In this document: piece after piece, positions 1-61,505 of the stretch | Layout: every line of letters begins with the position of its first letter | Position numbering within the stretch: the stretch's first letter is position 1 | Origin: a virus | Taxonomy: Duplodnaviria; Caudoviricetes | Reading direction: 5' to 3' (one strand) | DNA: 63,323 bases | IMG/VR virus record: IMGVR_UViG_3300047457_000456 | Coordinates: 1-63,323 of that record | Program-made: the position numbers and the translations under genes | Notes under the pieces: model-generated | The model's database searches: none | What the model was told of the DNA's origin: nothing | The model's input: only the letters and a program-made list of their open reading frames with translations

Positions 1-13
1 GGCTTGCCGGGTG
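1..13. repeat. Terminal 13-nt direct repeat (copy at 63311-63323); circular-assembly overlap or short terminal repeat
   Basis: GGCTTGCCGGGTG is both the first and the last 13 nt of the window. Confidence 0.85.
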
Positions 14-325
14 GGGTTGGCTGGGTATCCGGGGGGTGTCTAGGTGGGCGACGGGTCGCATAAGGCTCCCTCTGTATTATTAGGCATGGTTAGGCGATGT
101 CTACCATGTCCTTTGGCTGCCAGCCACGCTGTATCATCCTGAACTGAGCACGGCGATTCTAGTCCGTGAACCGAGCGAGTCGGATACACCCTAATCAACA
201 GTTTGAGCGATACTCCACAACCCTGTGTCGATGTTCTGTGGTTGGTAGCCAAGTTTCTAATCCTAGATAGTCAATCTCCTATTCCCGGAGGTGCGGATGG
301 TTTATTCTGTCCGTGCCATTCCGGG

Positions 326-442
326 GTATCCCTGTCGGTGCCACCAATGTCATATGACCTGCGGTGTCATGGTTCGACTCCATGTAAGGGGTATACCCCA
401 CGCTAAGTGGGGACACGTGGGGTGCGCCTACATATCACGCAC
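326..442 (+). ncRNA. Structured leader of first early gene (T-arm + hairpin + pseudoknot)
   Basis: CATGG-TTCGACT-CCATG (368-384), CCCCAC-GCTAA-GTGGGG (396-412), GTGGG/CCTAC + GTGCG/CGCAC (417-442). Confidence 0.5.
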
Positions 443-460
443 ATTTCATAGGAGTCTAAA

Positions 461-820
461 ATGACTACACAAACTCTTCTCGCCGCTTCCATCGACCGCA
501 TCGTCCTCGGACGAGAGAAGGTCAAGTTCGGAACGGTTTACACCCTCCTCTACACGACGGCTAAGGCCATCGAGGGTGGCCGTATCGAAGACGTTAAGCG
601 TGCAAACGCTCTCATTGAGCGTTCTATCGCTGACGGAAGCATCGAACTCCTCTGCACCGACGAGCAGATGGAAATGCTTGAGTGGGGATTGGACCAGCTC
701 GCTAAGTTCACAACTGGCGAATGCATGGCCATCAAGGAGCGCAAGCAACTGGATGCGGTTGCTCTGCGTGTTGCTGACTTCAACCGTAAGGTTGCCCAGT
801 CGGCACAGTACGAGTTCTAA
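461..820 (+). CDS. Hypothetical early protein (119 aa)
   Basis: AGGAG RBS, ATG, strongly biased C/G-ending codons. Confidence 0.85.
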   Translation: MTTQTLLAASIDRIVLGREKVKFGTVYTLLYTTAKAIEGGRIEDVKRANALIERSIADGSIELLCTDEQMEMLEWGLDQLAKFTTGECMAIKERKQLDAVALRVADFNRKVAQSAQYEF

Positions 821-841
821 GAACTCACGATTGACAATCTG

Positions 842-873
842 GGAGTTTGGTGCATCTCCGGCAAAATGCACCA
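842..873 (+). ncRNA. H-type pseudoknot element, divergent copy
   Basis: GGAG(842-845)/CTCC(856-859) and TGGTGCAT(848-855)/ATGCACCA(866-873), upstream of AAGGAG RBS. Confidence 0.55.
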
Positions 874-900
874 CTATCTAGTTCCAAGGAGAAACGACAA

Positions 901-1071
901 ATGGTAAGCAAGCAACTGTATCTCGCCCTCTGCATTAAGATGCGCCTTCAATCGGCGCATTTCCAGATCAAACTGGACAACAATGGTGAGACACCAAGTT
1001 GGTATGTCCGCCGTATCCTCTTCCTAAACCGGGTAATCCGCAAGGAAGAGGCCAAAGCGTTTGGCCGGTAG
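901..1071 (+). CDS. Hypothetical basic protein (56 aa)
   Basis: AAGGAG RBS before ATG 901 (start revised from ORF track 847). Confidence 0.75.
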   Translation: MVSKQLYLALCIKMRLQSAHFQIKLDNNGETPSWYVRRILFLNRVIRKEEAKAFGR

Positions 1072-1123
1072 GCTGGTGCCTTGTAGGGGTTCGATTCCCC
1101 TACTACCTTTTTCCCAATAGGGA
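1067..1123 (+). ncRNA. Mini-tRNA-like element copy 1 + downstream hairpin
   Basis: GGTAG/CTACC + TAGGGG-TTCGATT-CCCCTA; linker GCTGGT; then TCCC-AATA-GGGA. Confidence 0.8.
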
Positions 1124-1141
1124 TGTTTGAAGGAGAAACCG

Positions 1142-1537
1142 ATGAATACTCATCAATTGGCAATGCTGAGGACCTTGGCCCTGATGTCTAAGGAAGAGCT
1201 TAGTAAGCTCAACATCAAAGGTCGTGACATCCACGACGTGACACGGAAGGTCACCTATCGTGACCAGAAGGGTGTCGAGACGGACTTCCTCGTTGACCTC
1301 AAATTCGCAATGAGGCATCACCGAGACCCCGAATGGAAGGGCTATTTAGTTGCACCATCGACGTGCGACAACCCTAGCTGTCCATTCCATACGGGACGCA
1401 CATTCGTGTACGTCTTTGATTACAAGGGATGGGGGAAGACGGAATGGATGTGGGATGCCCCCGATGGTGAGGGGGTTGACAGTGGTTGCGGAGACCACTC
1501 TTGGCTGACCGACGACATGAAGGTCGAGGTCAAGTAG
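1142..1537 (+). CDS. Hypothetical early protein
   Basis: AAGGAG RBS, ATG 1142; contains a CxxxxCxxH segment. Confidence 0.8.
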   Translation: MNTHQLAMLRTLALMSKEELSKLNIKGRDIHDVTRKVTYRDQKGVETDFLVDLKFAMRHHRDPEWKGYLVAPSTCDNPSCPFHTGRTFVYVFDYKGWGKTEWMWDAPDGEGVDSGCGDHSWLTDDMKVEVK

Positions 1538-1589
1538 ATAGACTGGGAAACCGGGGTTCGATTCCCCGGCTATCTTTCCCCAACAGGGG
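1536..1589 (+). ncRNA. Mini-tRNA-like element copy 2 + downstream hairpin
   Basis: AGATAG/CTATCT + CCGGGG-TTCGATT-CCCCGG; linker ACTGGG; then CCCC-AACA-GGGG. Confidence 0.8.
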
Positions 1590-1609
1590 TTTGTTTGAGG
1601 AGAAAGACA

Positions 1610-2098
1610 ATGATTACATTGATGTTTGACCACCCGACATTGGAAGCCACCATCAACGCAGGAATCACCACGTTCTGCCAGCGTGGCAACATCGCCATGC
1701 CGAAGAACGGCGATACCGTTGCATTGGCGTATGCCATTGCAAAAGATGTGCGCCCATATGGAATGATGTTCACTCACCAGATCCACCTTACGGACGATTT
1801 ATTTATTCAGCCGAAACACATTGACGACGAGCGCCACACATGTGAGTGGCTCGTATACCGTCACTGCCGAGTGGTGATTGACGGAGTTACAGTGGACGCA
1901 CCTGTCCACGTGGCCAACTTTGGCTGGTCGTCTGATTCATACAAACATGAGCCAGCCGAATATGGCAAGTATTGCTATCTAGCTGTCATGAGGGGGAATG
2001 AGAATACCCCCACGTGGGAGCAGATGTACTACGACCGAGAGTTGTTCTATGTAGAGTTTGAACGACAGAACATTGAGAAGATCAACGCTGGACGGTAG
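1610..2098 (+). CDS. Hypothetical early protein
   Basis: GAGGAG RBS, ATG 1610. Confidence 0.8.
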   Translation: MITLMFDHPTLEATINAGITTFCQRGNIAMPKNGDTVALAYAIAKDVRPYGMMFTHQIHLTDDLFIQPKHIDDERHTCEWLVYRHCRVVIDGVTVDAPVHVANFGWSSDSYKHEPAEYGKYCYLAVMRGNENTPTWEQMYYDRELFYVEFERQNIEKINAGR

Positions 2099-2150
2099 AG
2101 CTGGTGCTAAGCCGGGGTTCGATTCCACGGCTACCTTTCCCCAATAGGGG
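2094..2150 (+). ncRNA. Mini-tRNA-like element copy 3 + downstream hairpin
   Basis: GGTAG/CTACC + CCGGGG-TTCGATT-CCACGG (one mismatch); then CCCC-AATA-GGGG. Confidence 0.78.
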
Positions 2151-2176
2151 TTTGTTTGAGAAGGAGAATGGGAACT

Positions 2177-2395
2177 ATGTTTGAAGGATGGTTTACAGCT
2201 CACGGCTTCACATGTCGATGGTGGCCAGCAGAACACAACAACACATGGATATGCATTTCGACCAGCAATGGTCTCAATAAGCAGAAGGTGTACGTTGTTT
2301 CGCAGTCTCAACTGCGAGACAGGCTGTCTGATGCAGCCAAGACCTTGCCAAATGGCGAGGTCATAATCCCGCAAATCAAAATGATTGGCAACTAG
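2177..2395 (+). CDS. Hypothetical early protein
   Basis: AAGGAG RBS; ATG 2177 has better spacing than 2168. Confidence 0.7.
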   Translation: MFEGWFTAHGFTCRWWPAEHNNTWICISTSNGLNKQKVYVVSQSQLRDRLSDAAKTLPNGEVIIPQIKMIGN

Positions 2396-2454
2396 GTAGG
2401 CTGGTGCTAGGCTGGGGTTCGATTCCCCAGCTACCTTTTCTCCCTAGTGGAGAA
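2394..2454 (+). ncRNA. Mini-tRNA-like element copy 4 + downstream hairpin
   Basis: AGGTAG/CTACCT + CTGGGG-TTCGATT-CCCCAG; then TTCTCC-CTAGT-GGAGAA. Confidence 0.8.
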
Positions 2455-2472
2455 GTTTGAAGGAGAAAGACA

Positions 2473-2652
2473 ATGACGGAAAGAGAAAAAAGAATAGCTG
2501 CAATCAATGCAAAAATGCCAGAAGGCCAACAACTGCCAGCTGATTATTGCGTGGCAGATACGGTGGCTATGGTCATTAACTTGTTGCTTGCAAGCCTCGT
2601 CGTTGGCACGATTATGTATGACATGATCGTCACACTTATGTCGAAAGGGTAA
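2473..2652 (+). CDS. Small membrane protein (59 aa, not in ORF track)
   Basis: AAGGAG RBS; MTEREKRIAAINAK...AMVINLLLASLVVGTIMYDMIVTLMSKG, hydrophobic C-half. Confidence 0.7.
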   Translation: MTEREKRIAAINAKMPEGQQLPADYCVADTVAMVINLLLASLVVGTIMYDMIVTLMSKG

Positions 2653-2656
2653 TCTA

Positions 2657-2842
2657 ATGCAGAATCTCGTAAATCGTAATCGTAAATTGGTTGATGCCAA
2701 CACTGGCCTCACCATGCTCTGCGTGGCACTGGCAATCATGTGCCTCGCATGTTTCACGCAGAACATCAAGCTGCGTGAGAAGAACGCACACCTTGATGAC
2801 AGAATCGCTAACGCAGAGGCAGTCTGCGGACAGAAGTTCTAA
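2657..2842 (+). CDS. Small membrane protein
   Basis: One hydrophobic helix followed by a coiled-coil-like segment. Confidence 0.65.
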   Translation: MQNLVNRNRKLVDANTGLTMLCVALAIMCLACFTQNIKLREKNAHLDDRIANAEAVCGQKF

Positions 2843-2877
2843 TCACTATGGGGGATGCGCATCCTACACGCATACTA
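2843..2877 (+). repeat. 35-nt exact intergenic repeat, pseudoknot-family variant (copy A)
   Basis: TCACTATGGGGGATGCGCATCCTACACGCATACTA identical to 3037-3071. Confidence 0.9.
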
Positions 2878-2895
2878 GAAAGGAGATTAAATAGC

Positions 2896-3036
2896 ATGAA
2901 TATTCAAGACATCATTGCCACTGTCTGCTTAGTGCCAGTTGCCTTTGTTGCTATTGGGTCAGCAATATGTTTGCTCTGTATGCCTTTTCACTACCTTTCA
3001 GATTATATGCATTTAATCTGTAGGAAAAAGTCTTAG
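2896..3036 (+). CDS. Small membrane protein (46 aa)
   Basis: AAGGAG RBS, hydrophobic helix; flanked by the 35-nt repeats. Confidence 0.65.
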   Translation: MNIQDIIATVCLVPVAFVAIGSAICLLCMPFHYLSDYMHLICRKKS

Positions 3037-3071
3037 TCACTATGGGGGATGCGCATCCTACACGCATACTA
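3037..3071 (+). repeat. 35-nt exact intergenic repeat, pseudoknot-family variant (copy B)
   Basis: Identical to 2843-2877, begins right after TAG. Confidence 0.9.
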
Positions 3072-3085
3072 CAAAGGAGATAGAG

Positions 3086-3301
3086 ATGAAGAAAGAACAA
3101 GAAGCCCACGACAAGGCATTGCAAGCCATGCATGAGTTCTTCTGGAACCGCAAGCCTACCGATCCGTTGGTAGAAACCATGCGTAGACAGAAGGAACTGG
3201 TTGAAGCATGGCATCAGGCCGAGAAGGCATACAAAGCAGCATACGCAGAAGCTATGCGTAAGAAGTTCCTCGACTTAGGAGATACAAATGAAGCAGTATG
3301 A
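3086..3301 (+). CDS. Hypothetical helical protein
   Basis: AAGGAG RBS; overlaps next gene. Confidence 0.75.
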   Translation: MKKEQEAHDKALQAMHEFFWNRKPTDPLVETMRRQKELVEAWHQAEKAYKAAYAEAMRKKFLDLGDTNEAV

Positions 3302-3707
3302 ATGTGGTTTCGGTAACAAGCGTGTTGATATAGGATTTCACACGTACTACGCAGTGTGTGCTGACACACCTGAAGCAATCAGCTACAAACTTGATCTACT
3401 CAAAGACAGCTTACGGCATCGATTTGAGTTTACGCATCAAGATACAGGAGCACTTTGGTCTTTTGATGTAAAGAAGATACATGTGTACACAGTCACCAAA
3501 AAGTACAGTCTGAATCGTGGGTCAATCAAAGAATGTCTGTCTGTACCACCTGACATTTCTTTCAGTATCGCTCTCGAAGGCAGGTGCGCCCTGCATACAG
3601 AGGGCAAGGCAAGTTGTCCCGATGATGCTTGCCAATACTTAAGGGCAGCTCTTGATAGGGCTATCCCTGAATCAATCGGAATAAACTTTTTTGAGGTAAT
3701 CAAATGA
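3288..3707 (+). CDS. Hypothetical protein
   Basis: AGGAG RBS; ATGA coupling to next gene. Confidence 0.75.
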   Translation: MKQYECGFGNKRVDIGFHTYYAVCADTPEAISYKLDLLKDSLRHRFEFTHQDTGALWSFDVKKIHVYTVTKKYSLNRGSIKECLSVPPDISFSIALEGRCALHTEGKASCPDDACQYLRAALDRAIPESIGINFFEVIK

Positions 3708-4027
3708 ACACACAACCAATCTACACAGCTAAAGAACTCGCACAGATCGAGAAGATTCGTCAACGTGCTATCGATCGGGCTAACCGAAAGCCTAAGCCTA
3801 AGATCTTCACGACTCGCCTAAACAAGTCCGAATACAAGTACCTTGTGTCGGCTGTTGGGCGTGACATCCTGTGCAAGGCTGTAGATACTACACAAGCACA
3901 GACCTACACATCAGAAGCTGCTGCTGAGAAGATGCTATTGGCTCTGGCTGTAAGCCCACAAGAGCATGGTGTACTACTACGCTTTGCCAAAATGGTAGCC
4001 GACAAGAAGGCACAACTCAGCCAGTAG
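3704..4027 (+). CDS. Hypothetical protein
   Basis: GAGGT RBS, translational coupling. Confidence 0.75.
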   Translation: MNTQPIYTAKELAQIEKIRQRAIDRANRKPKPKIFTTRLNKSEYKYLVSAVGRDILCKAVDTTQAQTYTSEAAAEKMLLALAVSPQEHGVLLRFAKMVADKKAQLSQ

Positions 4028-4105
4028 GGGTGTAAATAAAGAGGGGTGTAAAATTTATACCCCTCAATTTTTACTAGGGGGGAGGGTGTAAAATTTACTA
4101 CCCTC
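4026..4105. repeat. Triple GGGTGTAAA repeat; two copies inside inverted repeats
   Basis: GAGGGGT-GTAAAATTTAT-ACCCCTC (4041-4065) and GAGGGT-GTAAAATTTACT-ACCCTC (4082-4105), partial copy 4026-4036. Confidence 0.75.
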
Positions 4106-4141
4106 ATTACATTGAAGGAAAAGCAATAAGGAACTATAGTA

Positions 4142-4369
4142 ATGGCACGTGAGAAGAAGGTAGAGAGAGATATCCGCATTGAGTATCCATCAAGGAAGAC
4201 AACGGATGATTCATACAAAGCCAAGTGGGGCGTGTATGAGTACATTGTCAAGGAAGATGGCACTGTAGACCGCAGGTTCCTGCAAGACTTTGATTACCGT
4301 GACATGGCAGTCGAGGCTTACCCTGAAGCCACATTCAAGCCGAGCGGATATGTGAACCCAGAACTATGA
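4142..4369 (+). CDS. Hypothetical protein
   Basis: TAAGGA RBS, ATGA coupling. Confidence 0.75.
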   Translation: MAREKKVERDIRIEYPSRKTTDDSYKAKWGVYEYIVKEDGTVDRRFLQDFDYRDMAVEAYPEATFKPSGYVNPEL

Positions 4370-4686
4370 GATTCCAAGTAGGCTCGCGAGTACGTAATGT
4401 ACGACGACCAGATGTGATTGGTGTGGTGACATCACTTGATGCACCCGCCAATCAGTGGAAGGTGCGACCAGAAGACTTTCGCATCACCGTCAAGTACCCA
4501 CGGGTAACTAAGACGAGCAATGGCAAGTGGAAAGGAGGCGAACTGGACGAGTTGCCAGCTGACCTTCTCCTCACAGGAGAAAAGCCACATGAGGCATACA
4601 CAGAACTACTCAAGAAGAATGCCTACGGTGTTGTAGCAAACATCGGGGCATGGGACAAGAAGAAAGCTAACGAGAGAAAGACATGA
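4366..4686 (+). CDS. Hypothetical protein with SH3/KOW-like N-terminus
   Basis: MRFQVGSRV...IGVV pattern typical of small beta-barrel phage proteins. Confidence 0.65.
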   Translation: MRFQVGSRVRNVRRPDVIGVVTSLDAPANQWKVRPEDFRITVKYPRVTKTSNGKWKGGELDELPADLLLTGEKPHEAYTELLKKNAYGVVANIGAWDKKKANERKT

Positions 4687-4799
4687 CAGCGATAGTAATA
4701 TGCTCATGCATAGCCATCCTTTCAATCATCGGTTTGATCGGATGGTTTTTTAATTCAATAGAAGAAGCACAGAAAAGGATAGACGACAGAGATGAATAA
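4683..4799 (+). CDS. Small membrane peptide (38 aa, not in ORF track)
   Basis: MTAIVICSCIAILSIIGLIGWFF...; fills the gap and overlaps both neighbours. Confidence 0.55.
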   Translation: MTAIVICSCIAILSIIGLIGWFFNSIEEAQKRIDDRDE

Positions 4800-5178
4800 C
4801 ATTATCGAGCCACACATTCTCGCAACTCAAGTTCTCCGCGCTTACAGTAAGCACGAAGAGATCACTAACATCGAGTTCCACAATGACTTCAACATGCGGT
4901 CTAAGCACCGCTGTAACCTCAATGGGACAATCAACATCACACTTATCATGCAGTATGAACGCATGACTAACGCCGTATACAGGCTCAACCTTTCCATCCA
5001 CGACAAGACGTGGCGCATCAAGAGTGACGGTTACATCAAAGATGTCAACGTTGCATACGACCAATCATGCCCGGATTGCCAGCCAACATACATGATGATG
5101 CGAATGTACGCTGAGACATTCGTAGATACTGTACTCAAGCTCAAGACCGTTGAAGGTCATGGGTTCCTCGTAGACTAA
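4792..5178 (+). CDS. Hypothetical protein
   Basis: ORF in operon; CxxC near C-terminus. Confidence 0.75.
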   Translation: MNNIIEPHILATQVLRAYSKHEEITNIEFHNDFNMRSKHRCNLNGTINITLIMQYERMTNAVYRLNLSIHDKTWRIKSDGYIKDVNVAYDQSCPDCQPTYMMMRMYAETFVDTVLKLKTVEGHGFLVD

Positions 5179-5213
5179 TCACTACTGAGGGGTGCGTCTC
5201 AGTGACAACGCAC
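5179..5213 (+). ncRNA. H-type pseudoknot element
   Basis: CTGAG/CTCAG and GTGCGT/ACGCAC, starting right after TAA. Confidence 0.75.
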
Positions 5214-5229
5214 AAGAAAGAGAAAACAA

Positions 5230-5538
5230 ATGCTTACACACTACCTTAACCTCATCCTTAACTACGCCTATCGTCGCATCCATCCCGGCGGTGCGTTTGA
5301 GGCATTCATCAAGCAACAGCCTGATGCCATTTACAGACTGGATAAAGATGCACAGCGCAACCTTGCAGAGATCTGGAAGTTTGCATATCAGCATCTTGAC
5401 CACAGTTCATGGGGCGCACAAGGCTTTGAGAACTGGGTGGCAGGTACACCTACAGAAGCAGAGCTTACAGACTACTACAAATACTACAACGACTTAATCA
5501 AAACAGATTGGACACAGGTGGATACAAGTCATGGCTAA
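5230..5538 (+). CDS. Hypothetical phage protein
   Basis: PGG.F.A...WG..NW pattern resembling other small phage proteins. Confidence 0.75.
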   Translation: MLTHYLNLILNYAYRRIHPGGAFEAFIKQQPDAIYRLDKDAQRNLAEIWKFAYQHLDHSSWGAQGFENWVAGTPTEAELTDYYKYYNDLIKTDWTQVDTSHG

Positions 5539-5803
5539 CTACCCGTATATTTACACTTGCCAGTGTTATGACTTTGAGGGTCGAGAATTCGGCCCTCCTA
5601 TTGTTTGGAGAACTGCAGCATGGGCTAAAACGTGGTCTCGATACAGAGTTATTATTCAAGAAGAAACCACACCCGTAATGAATGTACGGATAACACGTAG
5701 AAGGAATGGAGCATACATCGATGAGCCGTTCATGCTAGTCTGGTTTGATAACAAAACTGGACAACCAACACAGACACGAAAGAAGGAACATTTAATCAAA
5801 TGA
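5531..5803 (+). CDS. Hypothetical protein
   Basis: Overlap-coupled ORF. Confidence 0.7.
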   Translation: MANYPYIYTCQCYDFEGREFGPPIVWRTAAWAKTWSRYRVIIQEETTPVMNVRITRRRNGAYIDEPFMLVWFDNKTGQPTQTRKKEHLIK

Positions 5804-6138
5804 TTTACACAGAACGAGAAATAGTAACCACGTTGTATGACATCCAACGTGCTATACAAAAAATCGATCCAGTGATGTTTGGATGCCTTAACGAAGATCA
5901 TATTCTTAAGATCATGCAGAGTTCGCTTGGTCGCAAAATCAAAATAGATAAAGAGTTATACGGCACAGTTATGTTTCTTAATGAAGTCATAGTCCTGTTG
6001 TACAACGCTAAACAGAAAGACATACCAGAAGATCTGAATGTCTATCTTGAAACATGGAGATTAGCAATCTATCCCCTGTTCAAACATTATGTTGAAGAAC
6101 GTGCTGGCCGATTCATCTTTGTTCGCGTAAAGAAATAA
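5800..6138 (+). CDS. Hypothetical protein
   Basis: ATGA-coupled ORF. Confidence 0.7.
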   Translation: MIYTEREIVTTLYDIQRAIQKIDPVMFGCLNEDHILKIMQSSLGRKIKIDKELYGTVMFLNEVIVLLYNAKQKDIPEDLNVYLETWRLAIYPLFKHYVEERAGRFIFVRVKK

Positions 6139-6173
6139 CTAGATGTGAGGGGTGCGTCTCACTAACAACGCAC
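6139..6173 (+). ncRNA. H-type pseudoknot element
   Basis: GTGAG/CTCAC and GTGCGT/ACGCAC, right after TAA. Confidence 0.75.
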
Positions 6174-6188
6174 AGAAAGAGAAACAAA

Positions 6189-6692
6189 ATGTCAACAATT
6201 AATATTCACTCCGATTACTTCAAGTCTAGCTTGCTCGCCCTCAAGGGCAAGATCGATGATGGCATTGCAAGGTCATATGATTACTACCAAGTTTGTTATC
6301 ATGACGACACTCAGTTCATTAACAATCACAGAATCAATGCTGCATATCGGTTGCGCTTTAATGCCGCAAGTGTAGACGATAATGGCGTTATGACAATGCT
6401 TGATAAACCAGTAGCGTTGATAACTGCTGAACTTGAGTATCGTGAGTCAAAAGATAGTACTGATAGTTGTGCATCAAAGAAGAAGGCATACGATGTCATA
6501 CTTCCTGATGGCACACTGGAAGAACAAATAGATTACGCCATTGAGGTATTCAAGACCGTGATTACTGAGAATCAGATACCACAAATCCCACTGGACTTTT
6601 GGAGGTTTGCATCGGAAGGTATGGCAAAGTGGGAAAAGGCATACGAAGTCACACTCAAGGCTCATCAACTAACTCTGTCCGCTAAGGACTAA
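6189..6692 (+). CDS. Hypothetical protein
   Basis: 167-aa ORF bounded by pseudoknot elements. Confidence 0.8.
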   Translation: MSTINIHSDYFKSSLLALKGKIDDGIARSYDYYQVCYHDDTQFINNHRINAAYRLRFNAASVDDNGVMTMLDKPVALITAELEYRESKDSTDSCASKKKAYDVILPDGTLEEQIDYAIEVFKTVITENQIPQIPLDFWRFASEGMAKWEKAYEVTLKAHQLTLSAKD

Positions 6693-6727
6693 CTGGATGT
6701 GAGGGGTGCGTCTCACCGACAACGCAC
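6693..6727 (+). ncRNA. H-type pseudoknot element
   Basis: GTGAG/CTCAC and GTGCGT/ACGCAC, right after TAA. Confidence 0.75.
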
Positions 6728-6749
6728 AACCACACACTAAGGAAACACT

Positions 6750-7013
6750 ATGAAGTACACAATACACACATTTCGTTCTCTCGTTGACGAGATGATGATT
6801 GATCACGTTGGATTAACAACCAATGACCTACCAGACGTAAGCCTGTGGGATTACTTTGATCCAGATGAAGACTATACACAAGAAGAAATATCTGAAGCTG
6901 CAATGCAAGCTGTCATGGCAGTACTTGAAGAGGGAGATTGTCCACAAGACATCATCGACTCTATTGTTTCCGCTGTTACAAGCATGGAAGCACGAACACT
7001 GAGAGGAATATAA
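6750..7013 (+). CDS. Small acidic protein
   Basis: TAAGGA RBS; D/E-rich. Confidence 0.75.
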   Translation: MKYTIHTFRSLVDEMMIDHVGLTTNDLPDVSLWDYFDPDEDYTQEEISEAAMQAVMAVLEEGDCPQDIIDSIVSAVTSMEARTLRGI

Positions 7014-7019
7014 ATAACA

Positions 7020-7487
7020 ATGCCACTTACATACGACACAACTAACTGCCACCCATTAGTTCGCGAAGAACTTGCTGGCATCACAGAATCAATCATCTTT
7101 ATAACCATGAATACAAGACATGGATGGGAGTTGAACAAAAAGACAATGCCCGTTTTCATTCGCAGGTTCAATCTCTTAAATAAAACATGGAGGTATTTAT
7201 GTATGGCTGACACAACGCATATGCGACGAACACATGACCGTATATGGCTTGACAAGTTTGGACTGCAATGGATTGGCGATGAGTATCCTCACCTTGTTCT
7301 GACTGAAGACTCAGTGCAGACGTATTGGTTCGGACTCAAAACTAATTGTGGTCAAGACACAGATGCAAAATGGAACAAGAACTTCTTGGAGAACCAATAT
7401 CGTGAGTCTTTTGAGCAGAGTCCGTTTTATCTGCGATACAGAACGATTGAACAAGTAAAGGATTTATTCAATGAGCTTTGTATTTAG
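7020..7487 (+). CDS. Hypothetical protein
   Basis: ORF in operon. Confidence 0.75.
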   Translation: MPLTYDTTNCHPLVREELAGITESIIFITMNTRHGWELNKKTMPVFIRRFNLLNKTWRYLCMADTTHMRRTHDRIWLDKFGLQWIGDEYPHLVLTEDSVQTYWFGLKTNCGQDTDAKWNKNFLENQYRESFEQSPFYLRYRTIEQVKDLFNELCI

Positions 7488-7788
7488 GCCTATTGTGTAC
7501 ACATTCTGGAGCACGTTCGGGGATAACACCCCGAACGACTTCATCGCTCGTTATATCGAACCAAGGTATGGCAATGCTGACGGTGTAGCAATACGCCGTA
7601 GACTTGCCCGTGAGATTGGTTGTACTGGACTACGGCGTGGTGTTGAGTACTACGTCACTGATGTCTATCACAGCATGTTCAGTGAACGTCACTGCATGGT
7701 GGGTTTTGCTGAAGTGCTTGCACCTATAACCGTTGAGTCCAAGAAAGAAGCACAAGAAATCTGTGCAAATATGGAGTTAAAGCAATGA
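7471..7788 (+). CDS. Hypothetical protein
   Basis: Overlap-coupled ORF. Confidence 0.7.
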   Translation: MSFVFRPIVYTFWSTFGDNTPNDFIARYIEPRYGNADGVAIRRRLAREIGCTGLRRGVEYYVTDVYHSMFSERHCMVGFAEVLAPITVESKKEAQEICANMELKQ

Positions 7789-8168
7789 GTGAATGGTTCA
7801 GTCTAGAAGACCGCAACTATCAGAACGACCACCGTGTACGCGGTGGTCGTGATCGTTGGTGGATTGCAATTGATGAACGCAAGATGCTAGTGAGGCACAA
7901 GTATGACAGTAAAAACAATAAACAAGTTTGGTACAAGTTTAAATATGAAGCTTGTGATACATGTGATGGCAAAGGTCATCATGTTAATCCTTCTGTTGAC
8001 TGCGACGGTCTAACAGCTGAGGATATGTATTATGGCGGTTACGAAGAAGATTATTTTTCTGGCGTGTACGACGTTGCTTGCTACAAATGCCATGGTGAAC
8101 GAGTCATGCCAGTAAAGTTCGGAAAAGCAATATACAAAAAATCAAATGAGGAGAATCGTTATGAGTGA
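7785..8168 (+). CDS. DnaJ-type zinc-finger-like protein
   Basis: CDTCDGKG ... CYKCHGER (CxxCxGxG-type repeats). Confidence 0.65.
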   Translation: MSEWFSLEDRNYQNDHRVRGGRDRWWIAIDERKMLVRHKYDSKNNKQVWYKFKYEACDTCDGKGHHVNPSVDCDGLTAEDMYYGGYEEDYFSGVYDVACYKCHGERVMPVKFGKAIYKKSNEENRYE

Positions 8169-18282: not shown

Positions 18283-19047
18283 GTAGACTTTCTTTTGGTC
18301 ACTATTGACGATGCAATCAAAACCAAGGCTCCGAGCAACATCTCGGACAGGCGCATATGATTTGCCATCTCGTAGAATACATTGAACGGCCAGTACTTCA
18401 CCGTTAAGTACTGGCCCATCTTCCCAAGCCAATACAAAGTTATCCCCAAGGACAAGCCGAACAAAGTCTCTGACAGGAGCATACGTCTTGCCATTTTGTA
18501 ATAACGCGACAATGTGATTTTCTCCATTGACAATCTTCCAGTCCTGTCCAGACTGGATTAACGACCAAGGGCGGATGAAGTAAACTAAATCCTTCTTTCT
18601 ATTTCCAAATAAAGGTCTGTGTGCAACCTCATAACCATTCCTGCTACCATCATTGTTGCTATTGCCTTCAATAGATTTCCAAATACCGTTTTCATCTGCA
18701 CCTTCAACAACACCAATGTGAAACGCATCTTGCTGTCCATTACTTAACGTCTTGACTAAAATCATTAAGTCGCCAGCCTGTGGAGATCGATGTAATACAC
18801 CATTTCTTTTTGCAACCGCAAGCCACACATCACAGTCCGCGCTGAAACAGAGTGGCCAATCCAAGCCACTCTTGGTTTCCCATTCAAGCGCAATACCACT
18901 AACAAATGATGCGCACCAGAAACTACCAATCGGCGCATTGACATTTGTATTCCACCTGTCAATCAGTGGACCACGATTACTTCCAATTGGTTGTTCTTCA
19001 GTACCTATGTACTTTCTGGCTATGTCTACAAAAAGTTCTTTGCTCAC
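18262..19047 (-). CDS. Endolysin: CHAP amidase + C-terminal copper-amine-oxidase-N-like envelope-binding repeats
   Basis: WCASFV (Cys), HIGVV (His), SIEGN; two GK(T/S)YAPVRD repeats. Confidence 0.85.
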   Translation of the reverse strand: MSKELFVDIARKYIGTEEQPIGSNRGPLIDRWNTNVNAPIGSFWCASFVSGIALEWETKSGLDWPLCFSADCDVWLAVAKRNGVLHRSPQAGDLMILVKTLSNGQQDAFHIGVVEGADENGIWKSIEGNSNNDGSRNGYEVAHRPLFGNRKKDLVYFIRPWSLIQSGQDWKIVNGENHIVALLQNGKTYAPVRDFVRLVLGDNFVLAWEDGPVLNGEVLAVQCILRDGKSYAPVRDVARSLGFDCIVNSDQKKVYLKKQVV

Positions 19048-22000
19048 TATTTATTCACTCCACCTTCTCCAAAACCAGTTAGTACACCGCTGACACCAGA
19101 GTCACCAAGTACATCAATAATATTTCTATACTTAGCACTCTTCCTCATTTCTTTTAACTTACTTCTATTCGTCCCGCCGTCTGACCTTGCGTCTAACCAA
19201 GCCTTCTCATATTGATCAGTTACATTTAAGTTAAGTCCAATCAAGTTAGCAGCTGCAAGTGCTGGCATGGATTCATAGTTTTTATCATCAATAAAGTACA
19301 ACTCTTCTCCCATAATAGCCCTCTGAAGATCAATGTCGTCTTCAATAGAATTCATCTGAGATAACTCGTTAATGGTAAACACAAGCTCTGTTGCAAAGCG
19401 TGATATTTCAGGTGGAGACATACGCAATATCTCACCAACAAGTGGTATGTTTCCATAACTTTCTAAAGCCTTCTTGCGCATTTCTCGGTAGCCTAAACTA
19501 TTTTCAAATGCAGCTCTACCTATATAGTCTTTGCCAGAAATTCCAGTTTTTAACAAACTCAGCAATGGACTCATTGCATTCTCTACATATTGAGTTAGAT
19601 ACCATTGCATAGTAGTGGCTATACCAGCATCACCAATCTTTGTTGGCCTAAGTGTTTGTCTAGTCATGCGACCCAATGCACCCGGCATAGATGAAGAATA
19701 TGTTTTTCCTTTATGTTCAAATGTCATCATTCCACTTAATGCGTCAGTTGCAGTATCTGCAATAAACTTAAACTTGTCAGGTTTTTCGTCTGAGTCTTCA
19801 AGTACAGTTGCAACTGCTTTACCAAATGCTAAAAGCTTTAACAAACGCCAGCCAAGTGGACCAACAAGTGACGATGCAAAACCAGTGTAGAACTTACGTT
19901 TAATATAGGCATTTGCGTAACCACTAAATTCTGGCGACCCCATTAATACACGTTGTTCTGTCTGAGTGTTAATGCGAGTATTAGAACCAGATAACTCAAA
20001 ACCCTTATTAACTAATTGTTTAGCTCCTAACAAAATGTGGCCAACACCCGGAGTTAATACCATTCGAGTTTTTGTATATGGCGCAGAAAAGAATAACTTT
20101 GAGAATGCTGACTGCACTTTGTTTAGCTGATCACTATTACTAAACTGACCTTGATCATTACCGCCAAGTAAGTTTACTGACCAAGCTATATCTTTCAGTA
20201 ATCGTTGTTGGAATTGCTCCTGTGTACCAACAAAGTCAGCAGGTCTTCCAACTTTAATTACATTTTGATATTCATCTTGGAACGCCATGATTTTTGCAAG
20301 GTCCTTGTAAATCACGTTGGTTCGTTCAAAAGCTGACAATCCCGGCGCAATCTTTTTGAATACTGCGGTAATGTGACCTTCACCAAGCATGTCATCAAAT
20401 CGTGAGTTTAAAGGTATATCTTCCTTACGGATGTCTGGATTTTCACCCAACGCTTCCTTGAATAAATTAAAGTGTTTTAGATAATCAAGGCTTAAACCAT
20501 ATGCTTGCATATCTTCAAGTGATAAGTCAGGCACAAAGTTTAGTACAGTCTCTATAGCAAGATGTACAGCCTTATCACCAAATGCTGTATCTCCAGCTTG
20601 CGCTAAAGCATGCCTTGGATTAGCAATAGATTGCTTTAAACTTGGAAGGTTTGGAGCCATTCCGATTATTGAAAGTGCAACACTACTCATCATTGGTGGC
20701 CGTTTACCAGACGCTAATGACATAAAGTCACCTAACCAGTTAGCATTCAAGTAGCTTTGGTTTGCCATAGCTGATAAGTCGCGTGATAACTTTGCAATGC
20801 GAACAAGAGAGTCAATCTCAAGCAAGCCTTGACCAATGCCATTTGCAGCAACCTGTGCTCCTTTGCCAAGTTTTGTAATAGTTTTTGCTGCATTACTGCC
20901 AGCTTTAATATTCTTTGCCCCATTTGCATCTACAGATACTTCAATGCGATCTGGGTCCATCGATGGGTCTTCATCTAGTAAGTTAGCAAAATCTACGTCT
21001 GGATCTGGTTCCATTGCTTCTTTGACAAGTTGCCCGATGTCATCTGGGTTAGGATTATTACGCAACATTTCAATATCGCGTTGACTAAATCCGTTGGAGA
21101 ATAACGTTAATCCCCATGTTTCATCTGCATCATCAAGTTTAGAGGCGATAGTTCTGCCCTTACTCAATACCTTTCCGTTAGCGCCTTTACGCTCTTGTCC
21201 TGTTACTGTACGTAACTTTTCTGCAATCGGTGCATTCTCATTCATTGCTTTCTTTACAAGTATCTTAGCAATGTGAACTTCAGGTAATGATATGCCAGCT
21301 GCGTTTGATTGATCAGACGCAAGTAGTCCACCAAGACCTAACTTTCGGTTCATGACTGCATCTTCCGTAAATGGAATACCTCGATCACGAATACGCCAAG
21401 CATCTTGGTTTTTATCCCAAAGAACCTCAAGCGTTCTAAGCGTAACTAATTCACCCGGAACAGGATTTTTAAATGCTGACAAAATGTCATTTAAGTTCCT
21501 GAACTTAGATGGCATATCGACCTTGCCTCCAACATATTCATTTCTATGTGGTAGTGCAATGGTTATGATTTGACTATCAGGCTGATTAGGATCTTGTGTG
21601 CTTTTCATTGCAGCAGATAAGGCAGTCAGTGATTCGGAACCACCAACTAGCAAGTTTGTTTTTGGGTCTAAGAAGTCTTTTGGCAATATAGAATGTGGCT
21701 TAGTTGTGTCCTGTGGACTCAAGTAAACATATGTTTCCGTTGGATAGTATTCTCCATCTTGTGTTTGAGATACTGCACCAAACAAACGTTCGTCATCTGA
21801 TAATTGACCATACTTACCAGCACTGTCCGAAATCATAGCAGTTGCTTTAAAAAGACTTGTTCCAGTTTCAGACGTTTTTGATAATGGCCTATCACTGAAA
21901 ACCCACGATCCATCAACTTGATTGCGCTCAGCTAGTACAACGCGTCCATCATCTGGATTAACTGCGTAGTATGGTTTTAAACCTTCTGGTTTTTTAACAG

Positions 22001-25000
22001 TTGCTAATGCTGCACGTTGTTCTGGGCTAAGATTGGCATCAGAAACCTCGCTGATAATTAACCAAGGAGTTGTCCCGCGCTTTTGTGTTACATCAACAAG
22101 TTCATACTTTCTCCATTCACGTAATGCACGAGCACGGAATGCAGCATCAGCATTCATTCTTTGAGCAAATGAAACAAAGTCTTTGTATACGGAGGAGTCT
22201 TGACCTAAAGGATTCTGTAACTTTGTAAGCAAATCAGTCATTGACGTAACGCCAGTTTGCTGACCTAAGTCAATATAACGTTTCATGATGTGAGACAAGA
22301 TTATGTTTTGATTACGGACGTTAGCTAAGTTAGTATCATCCGACTCAGTAAGTCTTGACAGGTAATCAAATATTTGCCGACCGTCAATAGGACCATTAAT
22401 GGTTTCTGAATATCCAAACGGAAGGTTGTTCTGTAATAGTTCTTTAATAGCTGCAAAGTTATCAATGACTTTGAATACTCTATTACCTGAAGTAACAACA
22501 CCTTCTTTTCGATAATCAATACTACGAGATTGAAGTAATGCATCAAGATCAGCAGCATCAACACCAAGTGCAATCATTCTGTTTGTAAAATCTTGGATTC
22601 CCCTTGACTCACGCGCAGCTTTACTCATCAGCGCTAATCCATTAGCTACATTGCCATTGCCTAAACCGTCAGCTAAAAGTAATAAATCTCCAGCAATTTG
22701 CTGTCTAAAACCAATTCGTACATCACTTTGCCCATTGCCAACTAAGTAAATATCTGGTGTTGAAAGATATCCATTACTGTCTTTACGACCATAGAAAGTA
22801 GCGTTGGTTTTATTTGAGCCACCAGATAAAGCCATTCCATCTGCACTTCCACCAAATAGGCTAAGGCGTAAATTATTAAATGTATTCTGCAAAGCTATAA
22901 ACTGAGGTCTAACATCTGCACCTTGCGCATCTTTCAATCCTTCAATTAAAGCATTGCCCCACTCTAACTCGTTTGTAATTCCATCTTTATATATTTGCTG
23001 TCGTGCATTTACACCAGATGCTTCGACTGCAGGATCATTGAAATCCTCTGGGTCAAACCCCTTTGATGCTGCACGTGGTTTCCCACCAAGTACATTATCC
23101 ATATCGACAATGTCTGAGTTTAATGTAGCCGCAAGCATTGCTTCTGCAGTCGCAACCTCATCATATGCTGAGCGTCCAGCAAGCGCGTCAACCATCTTTC
23201 GTGTGCCACCGTAAAGTGAATAGATGATTGCTGATGATTGTTTTGAAAAAGCTTCATTGCTATATCCAGAAACACGTGTTCCAAATCCAGCCAAAGCTTC
23301 TGGTTTCAGCAAGAACTTATAGACTTTGTCTCCATCTTTCATTGATACGACATATGCAAAGTTGCCTTTGTTCATATCAACATTTCGAGTCACAACTTTT
23401 CCATCTTCAAGAACGCGATATTTAAGCTGAACTCCATTGTCAACAACTTGTTCTACAGCTGAATAGTTTATGTTCTGCACATTTGAAATGTCCGTAATTT
23501 TTGTTGGACTTGCCTCAACTAATCGTACATTTCTAACTGCTGTTTGATATTTGCTCGGTGGAGCATAAACCAATTCTTCAACTTCAACAGAAACATCTCT
23601 GTAACTCTTGCCGAATGCCCTGTTAAAGATAGATGCAAATCGTGTTCCGCTTACATCAATACGATCTGTTTTAGTAAGGGAGCCAGCGGTTTTAAATTGA
23701 CCATTAGCTTCCGTTAATGGAGTTAGATATTTAGACATTTCTGTCTCATCACCAACTGCAAGACGTATTAACCAACCCTTTTCTAAGGGCTGATGTGACA
23801 CCCTGCCTTTGTCATCTCTTCCATAGAACGAATCTCCACCTAAAGTCCATCGTGCTATAACGTTTGATCGCGTTACATCAACAGCTCCGTAATCAAGAGT
23901 CTCGTTCATAAATCGTATTGCAGCACCAAGCCTGTTGCCAAAACTACGGAATGCAGATGATGCAGCTGCACTATAAGCCCAGTTATCTGTACCAGCAAAA
24001 ACTTGCGGTGAAGACAACGCCATATTGGTAAGGTACGCAACAACAATTTCGTTAATTACAGGGTCAGAATACGTAACACTGTCTCTATCAGCAATGTCTA
24101 CCTCATAACGTAATTCGTAATCGGACTTTGACATTGTCTCCTTTGCCTCTGCAACAACAGCAGCTTCATCCTTAAGTGCTTTGTATGCTCTACGGATTGC
24201 GCCGTCTTTACCTTGGCTTTTTAATTTATAGTTTTCAGTAGCCCATGCCAAAGCGTTATTGGCAAGCTCATACTTCTGTTTCCAAGGCATTGTGTGATAA
24301 ACACCATGGGTTACTTCGTGAGCAAGTGCAAACGCATTACGTCCAGCATTAGAAGTTCTATTTAAGTGTAGAACCATATTAACAACGTTACGGCTTACAT
24401 CTTCTGAAATAGGATGAACCCTATGTATAAATGCCTCAGCTCCACGAATATTTGACCCAACAGTAAAATCCGCTGGATTTACTCCACTAGAAAGTAGACG
24501 AGCATTCAATGTGTAAAAATCATTTGTAAGCTGTGCAAGTCTGTGGGTCTGTAAAAACTCAGACAGATTATCACCAAATGCTCCATTAATTCCTGAGAAC
24601 AAACGCTTTACAATTGATTTTGGATTACCCTTGCCGTCAAACTCAAGGAGTGTATGGTTTGCTTTAACGTAATCAATTATCTGATCAATGATTGCTGCAT
24701 CATTAGGGTTTGTCGCAGAATCACGAACAGCTTTTAAAACACGGGCGTAAAAATCACCAGCTTCTACATTACCAAACTGGAGTTCGTGATCCATGACACG
24801 CATTGCATAACTACGTGCATTCATATCCCACAACAACGCTAAGTCTTCAGCCATAGATGACACAAGCGCACGTGCTTGATCACTTGCATTGGATGCAAGG
24901 CCAAGTGTTTTCTTAAATACCTGTGCCATGCCAACGCGGTTAGTTGCTCCCCACTTTGTAAGAACAACCTCACCATCTGGTCCAACTCGCCATGTCTCTC

Positions 25001-61424: not shown

Positions 61425-61505
61425 TACCCCAGACGGGACTCGAACCCGTACACCTTGCGGTAACAGATTTTAAGTCTGTCGTGTCTACCATTCCACCACC
61501 GGGGC
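61425..61505 (-). tRNA. tRNA-Leu(UAA), CCA not encoded
   Basis: GCCCCGG/CTGGGGT acceptor, TGGTA D-loop, ACAGA-CTTAAAA-TCTGT anticodon arm, long variable arm, ACGGG-TTCGAGT-CCCGT. Confidence 0.93.

Follow-up and report, generated by a model that had tools for sequence, protein, structure and literature searches.

The virus record IMGVR_UViG_3300047457_000456 (Duplodnaviria; Caudoviricetes) is complete and linear at 63,323 bp and was analysed over its whole length (the window). Its left 7 kb carries two widespread, sense-strand, intercistronic RNA motifs, a minimal tRNA-like structure (mini-tRNA) that falls structurally within the class known as t-elements, and an H-type pseudoknot. Both stand between 20 small early open reading frames (ORFs; g1 to g20, 38-167 aa, 461-7013, + strand), which we positioned from start codon and ribosome-binding site and which form two transcription units, the nearly private g1-g11 (461-4027) and the partly conserved g12-g20. 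Covariation that includes G-U pairs, together with a strand bias, supports the view that these repeats are sense-strand RNA structures between cistrons. The model we favour for their function, to which as a whole we assign a probability of roughly 0.55, is one in which the t-elements would be cut by the host, the pseudoknots would protect or insulate the neighbouring mRNA and both would foster the recombination of gene cassettes. Comparisons were made with about 37 metagenomic IMG/VR relatives that share a 297-aa protein at 72-94% identity, out of 69 loci found.

Structured repeats at the early gene junctions

Between 461 and 7013, spacers of 49-114 nt separate the genes at 11 junctions and every one of these (11/11) holds a repeat or an inverted repeat, as the initial annotation had stated for nearly all junctions without overlap; at the remaining 9 junctions the genes overlap or abut. 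The junction 821-900 contains a pseudoknot termed B'', mini-tRNAs occupy 1072-1141, 1538-1609, 2099-2176 and 2396-2472, and B' repeats are found in 2843-2895 and 3037-3084. A double inverted repeat lies in 4028-4141, and B pseudoknots in 5179-5229, 6139-6188 and 6693-6749. The repeats end where that annotation had placed their end, with the last pseudoknot strand stopping at 6727, and no junction repeats were found elsewhere in the 63-kb genome. A repeat search returned the families D1 (4 copies), D2 (3 copies) and D3 (2 copies, 86% over 65 nt). All 4 occurrences of a T-loop 11-mer fall on the + strand between 1088 and 2426, where 100 shuffles give an expectation of 0.00, and a 15-mer of pseudoknot B occurs 3 times against 0.04 expected from shuffles. 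Single-sequence minimum free energy z-scores of the repeats run from 0.32 to -1.86, and only 4028-4141 reaches -2.65; as these values are unremarkable for most elements, the support for the structures is comparative rather than thermodynamic. Searching Rfam 15 at E <=10 with positions 1-8000 of the window placed no family on any element, the pseudoknot motif included, except for 17-nt T-arm fragments of tmRNA models.

Four mini-tRNAs had been predicted and all four stand, given the copy number, the T-loop count and the strong covariation described below. The predicted total of up to seven pseudoknots shrinks to four with comparative support plus two plausible B' copies, since a proposed leader pseudoknot at 420-442 has no relatives and the segment 326-460 a folding z-score of 0.00. 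A T-arm-like hairpin at ~369-385, put forward as a fifth mini-tRNA within the same segment, was dropped as well, having neither relatives nor a match to the covariance model R1, which we built from the t-element copies of nine relatives.

Each t-element is composed of a 4-6-nt 5' strand, a linker of (A/G)GCUGGUGC and 3-5 further nt, a T-stem of 6-7 bp capped by the loop UUCGAUU and a complementary 3' strand; an acceptor-like stem is thus joined through a GCUGGUG linker to a canonical T-arm, and the anticodon arm is absent. The canonical T-loop motif GGTTCRANYCC is matched by GGTTCGATTCC in all four window copies. T-element 1 (1066..1107, +; T-arm 1083-1103) scores 44.8 bits against R1 and holds the g2 TAG stop inside its 5' strand. 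In t-element 2 (1536..1575, +; 45.3 bits) the acceptor AGAUAG/CUAUCU and the T-stem contribute 6+6 bp, and the element opens with the G of the g3 TAG stop (1535-1537). T-element 3 (2094..2135, +; 67 bits) shows one G-A mismatch in its T-stem and again has a stop, the TAG of g4, inside the 5' strand, while t-element 4 (2394..2436, +; 58.8 bits; 5+7 bp) begins within the g5 TAG stop (2393-2395). The stack of acceptor and T-stem measures 11, 12 and 12 bp in three window copies (by script) and 11-12 bp in copy 3 (by eye, given the G-A mismatch), which is the length of the tRNA acceptor/T minihelix. R1 found no copy in the window beyond these four, and ARAGORN called no tRNA on them, lacking as they do the anticodon arm and full cloverleaf of a genuine tRNA. 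The exact linker word GCTGGTG is present at 1072-1078, 2100-2106 and 2400-2406.

Across the window and the nine relatives R1 yields 21 distinct copies, all in gene sense. In their alignment 98.3% of cells are paired, 9 of 11 pairs are changed on both sides and 6 cells are G-U; none of 500 shuffles reaches the observed value, and slid partners pair in 35-59% of cells. Compensations are visible even in the unaligned sequences (GGTAG/CTACC, GGACG/CGTCC, GGCAG/CTGCC, AGATAG/CTATCT). The linker GG is invariant in 19/21 copies, and in L120:7719 and L036:2145 it changes to GA together with a C to U change in the T-loop, a double change that fits what the tRNA G19:C56 elbow pair predicts, as a single event. 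A variant with an extra 8-bp arm (GAGGGUGA/UCACCCUC) between linker and T-arm was seen at L023:4060-4130 and L025:3820-3890, and this arm resembles a retained anticodon-arm position.

The mini-tRNA extends well beyond this phage lineage. Combining the linker word with the T-loop pattern matched at least 118 viral contigs, and 116 of the 117 viral pattern matches listed were not called as tRNA by ARAGORN. Among the 102 distinct viral matches listed, 70 have an acceptor-like helix of at least 4 bp at the right place, compared with 10 in a displaced control, and 68 have a stack of 11-13 bp. A set of 46 distinct copies, all on unrelated viral contigs, is paired in 99.4% of cells and shows 166 double-changed cells, and the orientation relative to flanking genes on unrelated contigs is sense in 45 cases and antisense in 7, with 13 ties. 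The trailer after the 3' strand consists of A or U and then a U-rich run, and CCA occurs in 0/76. At gathering score no Rfam family overlapped the mini-tRNAs at 14 other viral loci. The cyanophage-like contigs L162:3580-3879, L177:1117-1417 and L182:695-1001 each carry a glutamine-II riboswitch that is followed, ~200 nt further down the same strand, by a mini-tRNA.

Pattern matches in cellular genomes are mostly coding sequence hit by chance, the architecture being present in 14/121. In haloarchaea the copies stand between 23S and 5S rRNA, and the matched part ends ~9 nt before the 5S match. Five Bacteroidota loci (L467, L471, L491, L507 and L517; Draconibacterium, Maribellus, Mariniphaga) have a mini-tRNA between tRNA-Ala and 23S rRNA. 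R1, although built from phage copies, scores both the haloarchaeal 23S-5S and the Bacteroidota tRNA-Ala-23S copies.

The B pseudoknots follow the layout S1a-GG-S2a-S1b-L3-S2b, with helices S1 and S2. B2 (6145..6173, +) reads GUGAG GG GUGCGU CUCAC UAACA ACGCAC, pairing 6145-6149 (GUGAG) with 6158-6162 (CUCAC) as S1 and 6152-6157 with 6168-6173 as S2. B1 (5185..5213, +) forms S1 from CUGAG/CUCAG and S2 from GUGCGU (5192-5197) and ACGCAC (5208-5213), and B3 occupies 6699..6727 (+). The B'' pseudoknot (841..872, +; 5 relatives) combines S1 GGGAG (841-845)/CUCC (856-859) with S2 GGUGCAU (849-855)/AUGCACC (866-872); among its relatives, S2 occurs as GGUGCAU/AUGCACC and as GAUGCAU/AUGCAUC, a compensatory G-C to A-U exchange, plus a G-U intermediate. 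The B' repeat is present in two exact 35-nt copies, at 2843..2877 and 3037..3071 (both +), which confirms that the ORF at 2896-3036 sits between exact repeats. By analogy, a B' copy may form a pseudoknot from AUG (2848-2850)/CAU (2860-2862) and AUGCG (2855-2859)/CGCAU (2869-2873), the S1 of which has 3 bp only; a search for relatives of B' found none.

A search in which only the S2 words were fixed returned 149 distinct matches, and an S1 of at least 4 bp was present at the predicted place in 62/149, against 5/149 in the control. The S1 variants include CAAG/CUUG, UCAG/CUGA, AGAG/CUCU, CGAG/CUCG, GCAG/CUGC and others, and one pair occurs with 4 pair types. Orientation is again biased (21 sense, 3 antisense), and 23/26 pseudoknots lie outside long ORFs, compared with 23/81 pattern matches without S1. 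The phage contigs that carry the motif range in GC from 0.33 to 0.61, many of them without Shine-Dalgarno sequences. The H-type pseudoknots stand ~5-9 nt past the stop codon and ~16-26 nt before the next start. Over 109 contexts, many of them related, the median is 7 nt from the upstream stop to the pseudoknot start and 17 nt from its end to the next ATG; in unrelated phages the distances are usually 5-12 nt after the stop and 15-36 nt before the ATG, with outliers to 53 and 110 nt. Recoding pseudoknots have a similar spacing, 5-9 nt past the recoding site. A recoding role (readthrough or -1 frameshift) was rejected because read-through would add just 8-14 codons, the in-frame extension stopping after 8 (g15), 8 (g18) and 14 (g19) codons. 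In some unrelated phages (L076:3522-3620, L087 and L302) two or three short hairpins with GUAAGCA loops come after the pseudoknot and before the next ATG, which lies ~65 nt downstream.

A processing and cassette model, and its rivals

In the model we favour, host RNA polymerase would read the left 7 kb as at least two polycistronic early mRNAs, split by a terminator and promoter at 4041-4140. The t-elements would act as tRNA mimics in which the GCUGGUG linker supplies the D-loop GG for the elbow, and host tRNA 3'-processing, either of RNase Z type or by RNase E plus trimming, would cut just past each of them. RNase Z cuts one nucleotide after the 3' strand on CCA-less precursors. The upstream cistron would then end in a stable tRNA-like cap with its stop codon kept, and 0-4 nt would separate the new 5' end of the downstream cistron from a small hairpin with its Shine-Dalgarno sequence. 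The upstream stop codon lies in or at the 5' strand in 13/21 lineage copies, including 4/4 window copies, so that a canonical RNase P cut would leave a stop-less mRNA and a 3'-side cut of RNase Z type is the more sensible; RNase P possibly also cuts on the 5' side, removing the stop codon. In the wider family a stop triplet near the 5' strand is present in 42/76, which is not clearly above a rough expectation. For the H-type pseudoknots we favour a role in protecting mRNA 3' ends and/or in insulating the ribosome-binding site downstream.

The small hairpins that would open the downstream mRNAs follow the t-elements closely. The first (1113..1122, +) begins 5 nt past t-element 1 and precedes GUUUGA and the g3 Shine-Dalgarno sequence. 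CCCC/GGGG hairpins stand 2 nt past t-element 2 (1578..1589, +) and 3 nt past t-element 3 (2139..2150, +), and a UUCUCC/GGAGAA hairpin, compensatory with respect to CCCC/GGGG, 1 nt past t-element 4 (2438..2454, +). Together with CCUC/GAGG these compensatory variants make up a hairpin that is present in 12/13 lineage copies listed. A 5'-terminal stem-loop stabilises mRNA in E. coli.

Because the modules are conserved and the ORFs between them are not, the modules would also offer short stretches of homology at which recombination can insert, delete or exchange ORFan cassettes. We determined gene presence in the 23 relatives with at least 6.5 kb of sequence upstream of the 297-aa gene. Genes g1-g11 are present in 0-1/23, except g3 with 7/23; g13, g14, g16, g17 and g19 are present in 17-23/23. 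Within 1-7000, most of the conserved DNA islands are these very elements. In four relatives B'' is directly followed by a t-element, where the window has g2 between them, and the relatives' copy nearest to window t-element 4 stands upstream of the g5 homologue, not downstream. Within the window the two B' repeats bracket g8, a 46-aa hydrophobic ORF (2896..3036, +). Metagenome contigs on 300-7000 provide joints in register with the repeats. The joint 1584->2146, seen in two runs of one study, skips 561 nt, equal to the spacing of t-elements 2 and 3, with 15 nt shared. At the joint 2842->3037 the gap is 194 nt, an exact match to the B' spacing, and 35 nt are shared; two further joints are weak. 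The contigs were presumably assembled on a 31-letter word, for which 15 shared nucleotides are too few to cause an assembly collapse at 1584->2146. These joints, with hypervariable ORFs between the repeats, support the initial proposal that the repeats may serve as points of cassette gain and loss, and they give direct but thin population support to recombination at the repeats, or to cassette insertion together with a repeat, in natural populations.

Processing of this kind is well motivated by known t-elements, and comparison with other systems supports, by analogy, the match of the mini-tRNAs to a class cut by tRNA-processing nucleases. In Haloferax volcanii, tRNase Z is described as cutting the t-element and so generating the 5' end of 5S rRNA (Holzle 2008, 2012, cited in PMC4326828). 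T-elements in general are reported as substrates of RNase P and tRNase Z, and an RNA placed between two of them is released in vivo (PMC4326828, PMC3296008). The phage copies share with the haloarchaeal element the 5' strand, the GCUGGUG-containing linker, the T-arm with GGUUCGAUUCC, the 3' strand, the ~12-bp stack, the absence of an anticodon arm and a downstream RNA that begins a few nt past the element. They differ in setting: the haloarchaeal element occurs once per archaeal rRNA operon, whereas the phage copies lie between protein genes, up to four of them within 1.4 kb, and take in the stop codon of the upstream gene, and their cleavage is predicted by analogy. Plant mitochondrial t-elements, found with the motif GGTTCRANYCC, have ends that are described as mRNA 5'/3' ends made by RNase Z and RNase P, and some mRNA 3' ends (nad6, ccmC) are reported upstream of the stop codon (Forner 2007, PMC1920247). 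They too are tRNA-like structures within polycistronic transcripts with a common T-arm motif, but are organellar, mostly fuller cloverleaf remnants, and form no repeated family flanking variable cassettes. The tRNA-like domain of YrlA, whose M. smegmatis form is reported to be cut by RNase P and to receive CCA (PMC4201824), is likewise a bacterial or phage non-tRNA with T-arm and D-loop features; YrlA differs as a stand-alone small RNA beside Ro60 genes with a Ro-binding stem, and the window elements are without an Rfam match. Animal mitochondrial tRNA punctuation and the MALAT1 mascRNA, as they have been described, also use tRNA-shaped marks where tRNA-processing enzymes cut long transcripts, although these are real tRNAs or a full cloverleaf-like mimic, and eukaryotic.

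Two phage analogies offered in the initial annotation fared less well. In T7 the polycistronic early transcript is cut between genes at RNase III sites and the remaining structure stabilises the pieces, and RNase III requires a long (~20 bp) double-stranded stem. Here the longest helices in the repeats are of 5-7 bp and the shape is tRNA-like or pseudoknotted, so the comparison with T7 fails on stem length. The T4 analogy survives in part. The early-promoter stem-loop (PeSL) cassettes of T4-type phages are described as short conserved intergenic motifs that flank variable ORFan genes, with a proposed modular shuffling (PMC2839356, PMC4122927), and the window resembles them in having a conserved motif beside variable ORFs and indels at the motif. 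PeSL, however, combines a promoter with a terminator stem-loop, and the analogy breaks down on its promoter part because the window repeats have no sigma-70-like site and adopt other RNA folds.

Other functions for the same structures have to be weighed. The t-elements might stay uncut, as intact mimics in the mRNA that block 3' exonucleases, recruit a tRNA-binding factor (CCA-adding enzyme, TruB/TrmA, EF-Tu and ribosomal elbow contacts being candidates) or couple termination to re-initiation 30-38 nt downstream. The position of the stop codon would suit such a role, as would the next ATG, which lies 30-38 nt past the t-element in 13/21 copies, and the conservation of the structure with its elbow. 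RNase Z-type enzymes accept U-rich, CCA-less trailers, and it is this kind of trailer that follows the phage elements; we identified no binding factor for an uncut mimic. Short acceptor stems are reported to disfavour RNase P (PMC4201824), whereas the identical architecture is described as a demonstrated tRNase Z/RNase P substrate in Haloferax (PMC4326828), and we regard persistence of the uncut mimic as unlikely.

The repeats could instead be transcription signals, the t-elements and hairpins acting as weak terminators or attenuators and the pseudoknot sequence as a promoter or regulator-binding DNA site. A terminator scan does flag three T-arm hairpins with T-rich tails, and the pseudoknot core is nearly invariant in relatives whose flanking proteins are 25-90% identical. 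Yet the U-runs measure 3-5 nt and stand apart from the flagged hairpin, the elements contain no -35/-10 pair, the promoter scan counted 11 promoter-like sites against 15.0 expected, and a true terminator and promoter exist at 4041-4140. The pseudoknot S1 covaries with its pairing kept, the G-U pairs are strand-specific, and one DNA-binding partner is unlikely because pseudoknot phages span GC 0.33-0.61, with and without Shine-Dalgarno sequences; a transcriptional role is thus improbable, and distinctly so. Least credible of all is the idea that the repeats work first and foremost in DNA recombination (as att-like or Chi-like sites or as cassette borders) and that their RNA fold is incidental. 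The in-register deletions and the hypervariable ORFs between repeats are what such sites would leave, and GCTGGTG matches 7/8 letters of the E. coli Chi site; the eighth letter after it is mostly C or T, not G, and we read the linker as a D-loop substitute and its likeness to Chi as coincidence. Compensatory changes and G-U pairs keep an RNA helix rather than a DNA word, the same element is an RNA signal in rRNA operons, and no integrase or recombinase was recognised among the ORFs scanned. This leaves recombination as the primary function a very remote prospect.

Several observations weigh against the processing and cassette model itself. No RNA run covering 300-7000 was found, one run recorded as RNA (X4) being without match. 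The alignments A5 and A6 were fitted to the covariance model, which favours pairing, the elbow covariation amounts to one evolutionary event in 2 related copies, and the acceptor-like stem has just 4-6 bp. R1 finds a t-element in just 8/23 relatives, two of these as partial matches to a variant copy; in relatives without a match, the far-left ends may lie past the 10 kb examined. In the wider family no enrichment is seen for the hairpin that follows the t-element (39/76 against 29/76 and 34/76 in controls), which makes this hairpin a feature of the present lineage. In the main B family S2 is invariant in sequence apart from G-U in 6/44, and a scan for S2 variants compensated from G-C to A-U gave 1 compensated and 1 uncompensated match with S1; the conserved S2 letters may reflect a protein or ribosome contact rather than the helix alone. 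The contigs with joints are of unknown library type, one contig each, with X2 and X3 from one study, and 2842->3037 could be an assembly artefact because its 35-nt repeat exceeds the 31-letter word.

A full-text literature search turned up no account of phage mRNAs punctuated by tRNA-like elements, nor one of the B pseudoknot, the supplements of PMC10690425 lying outside that search. PMC10690425, a 2023 catalogue of ~10,000 candidate viral RNAs, mentions tRNA-like structures, and both motifs may already be listed in it without a function; a 2026 preprint describes three tRNA-like RNA families, with motifs different from the window elements. What is added here is real, namely a phage-borne variant of t-element punctuation and an undescribed pseudoknot motif. 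If cleavage takes place, phages would use the host tRNA-processing machinery to punctuate early mRNAs, as in organelles and the archaeal rRNA operon. The model would also explain in mechanistic terms how the constant exchange of genes is tolerated in hypervariable ORFan regions, since each cassette would bring or meet a standard RNA module that sets mRNA ends and shields the ribosome-binding site. More speculatively, and we hold this to be doubtful, many phage lineages might share a plug-and-play intercistronic toolkit of host-cut t-elements and an invariant pseudoknot that frees the expression of each ORFan cassette from its neighbours, with excised mini-tRNAs of 40-45 nt persisting as stable small RNAs that act in trans, for instance as decoys or sponges of host enzymes or of defence nucleases with affinity for the acceptor, T-arm or elbow. 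Both motifs are short, widespread and host-independent, which makes them candidate parts for engineered operons, and they should be useful as annotation markers of early regions in uncultured phages. T-elements already serve as engineering parts in Haloferax, as described in PMC4326828.

The operon boundary and the genome around it

The double inverted repeat that the initial annotation had counted among the repeats is indeed present at 4028-4141, but it belongs outside the repeat system, being a conserved terminator plus promoter. The intrinsic terminator (4041..4075, +), conserved in 22 relatives, has an 11-bp stem and a 3-nt loop followed by AAUUUUUAC, and a second conserved GC-rich hairpin (4082..4105, +) lies just upstream of a sigma-70-like promoter (4112..4140, +; TTGAAG-17-TATAGT), the only intergenic site of this type on the + strand. 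The 22 relatives repeat the order of GC-rich hairpin with U-run, second hairpin and promoter, and where the promoter is recognisable its -35 box is TTGAAT or TTGAAC with a TATAAT-like -10. The double inverted repeat is thus an ordinary operon boundary dividing g1-g11 from the right unit. The g12 ATG stands 1 nt past the -10 box in the window (4135-4144) and overlaps it in L012 and L014 near 5500-5730, which leaves no room for a g12 leader from this promoter. Many other relatives have an ATG 4-5 nt past TATAAT, which suggests a leaderless first gene.

Genes run rightward up to 18.3 kb and leftward beyond, and those recognised encode a portal, a large terminase, a major head protein, a DnaB-type helicase, an O-like replication initiator, a Gam-like protein, an endolysin and a thymidylate synthase. 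The reference phage collection gave neither a DNA match nor a capsid-protein match to the window, and 0/10 early proteins tested matched PHROG. The left end (1-330) is non-coding and GC-rich (first 2 kb 0.52, ~0.42 elsewhere), and the promoter scan flagged no promoter-like site on its + strand.

The conserved sigma-70-type promoter, together with strong Shine-Dalgarno sequences, points to the host polymerase as the enzyme that transcribes the early region, and no RNA polymerase gene was recognised among the phage ORFs scanned. Candidates for such a gene were set aside in turn. A 3741-aa ORF (19047-30272, -) has only sub-threshold Pfam matches, RepB/ParB-like at residues 1632-1710 and M78 peptidase-like at 1957-2009, with no PHROG match and no relative in PDB, and may be a giant polyvalent or injected protein. 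A 1405-aa ORF matched neither PHROG nor PDB, ORFs of 1214 aa and 617 aa had no PHROG match, and a search for a D.D.D triad gave a single, unconvincing site. The idea of an N4-like phage was dropped because the replication genes are an O-like initiator, DnaB and a Gam-like protein.

A tRNA-Leu(UAA) gene at 61425-61505 (-) is the only ARAGORN call in the window, and its CCA is not encoded. The Shine-Dalgarno sequence and ATG of the next leftward gene follow within ~12 nt, so that a real tRNA also punctuates a late operon, and since this tRNA comes without an encoded CCA, the host must process CCA-less 3' ends.

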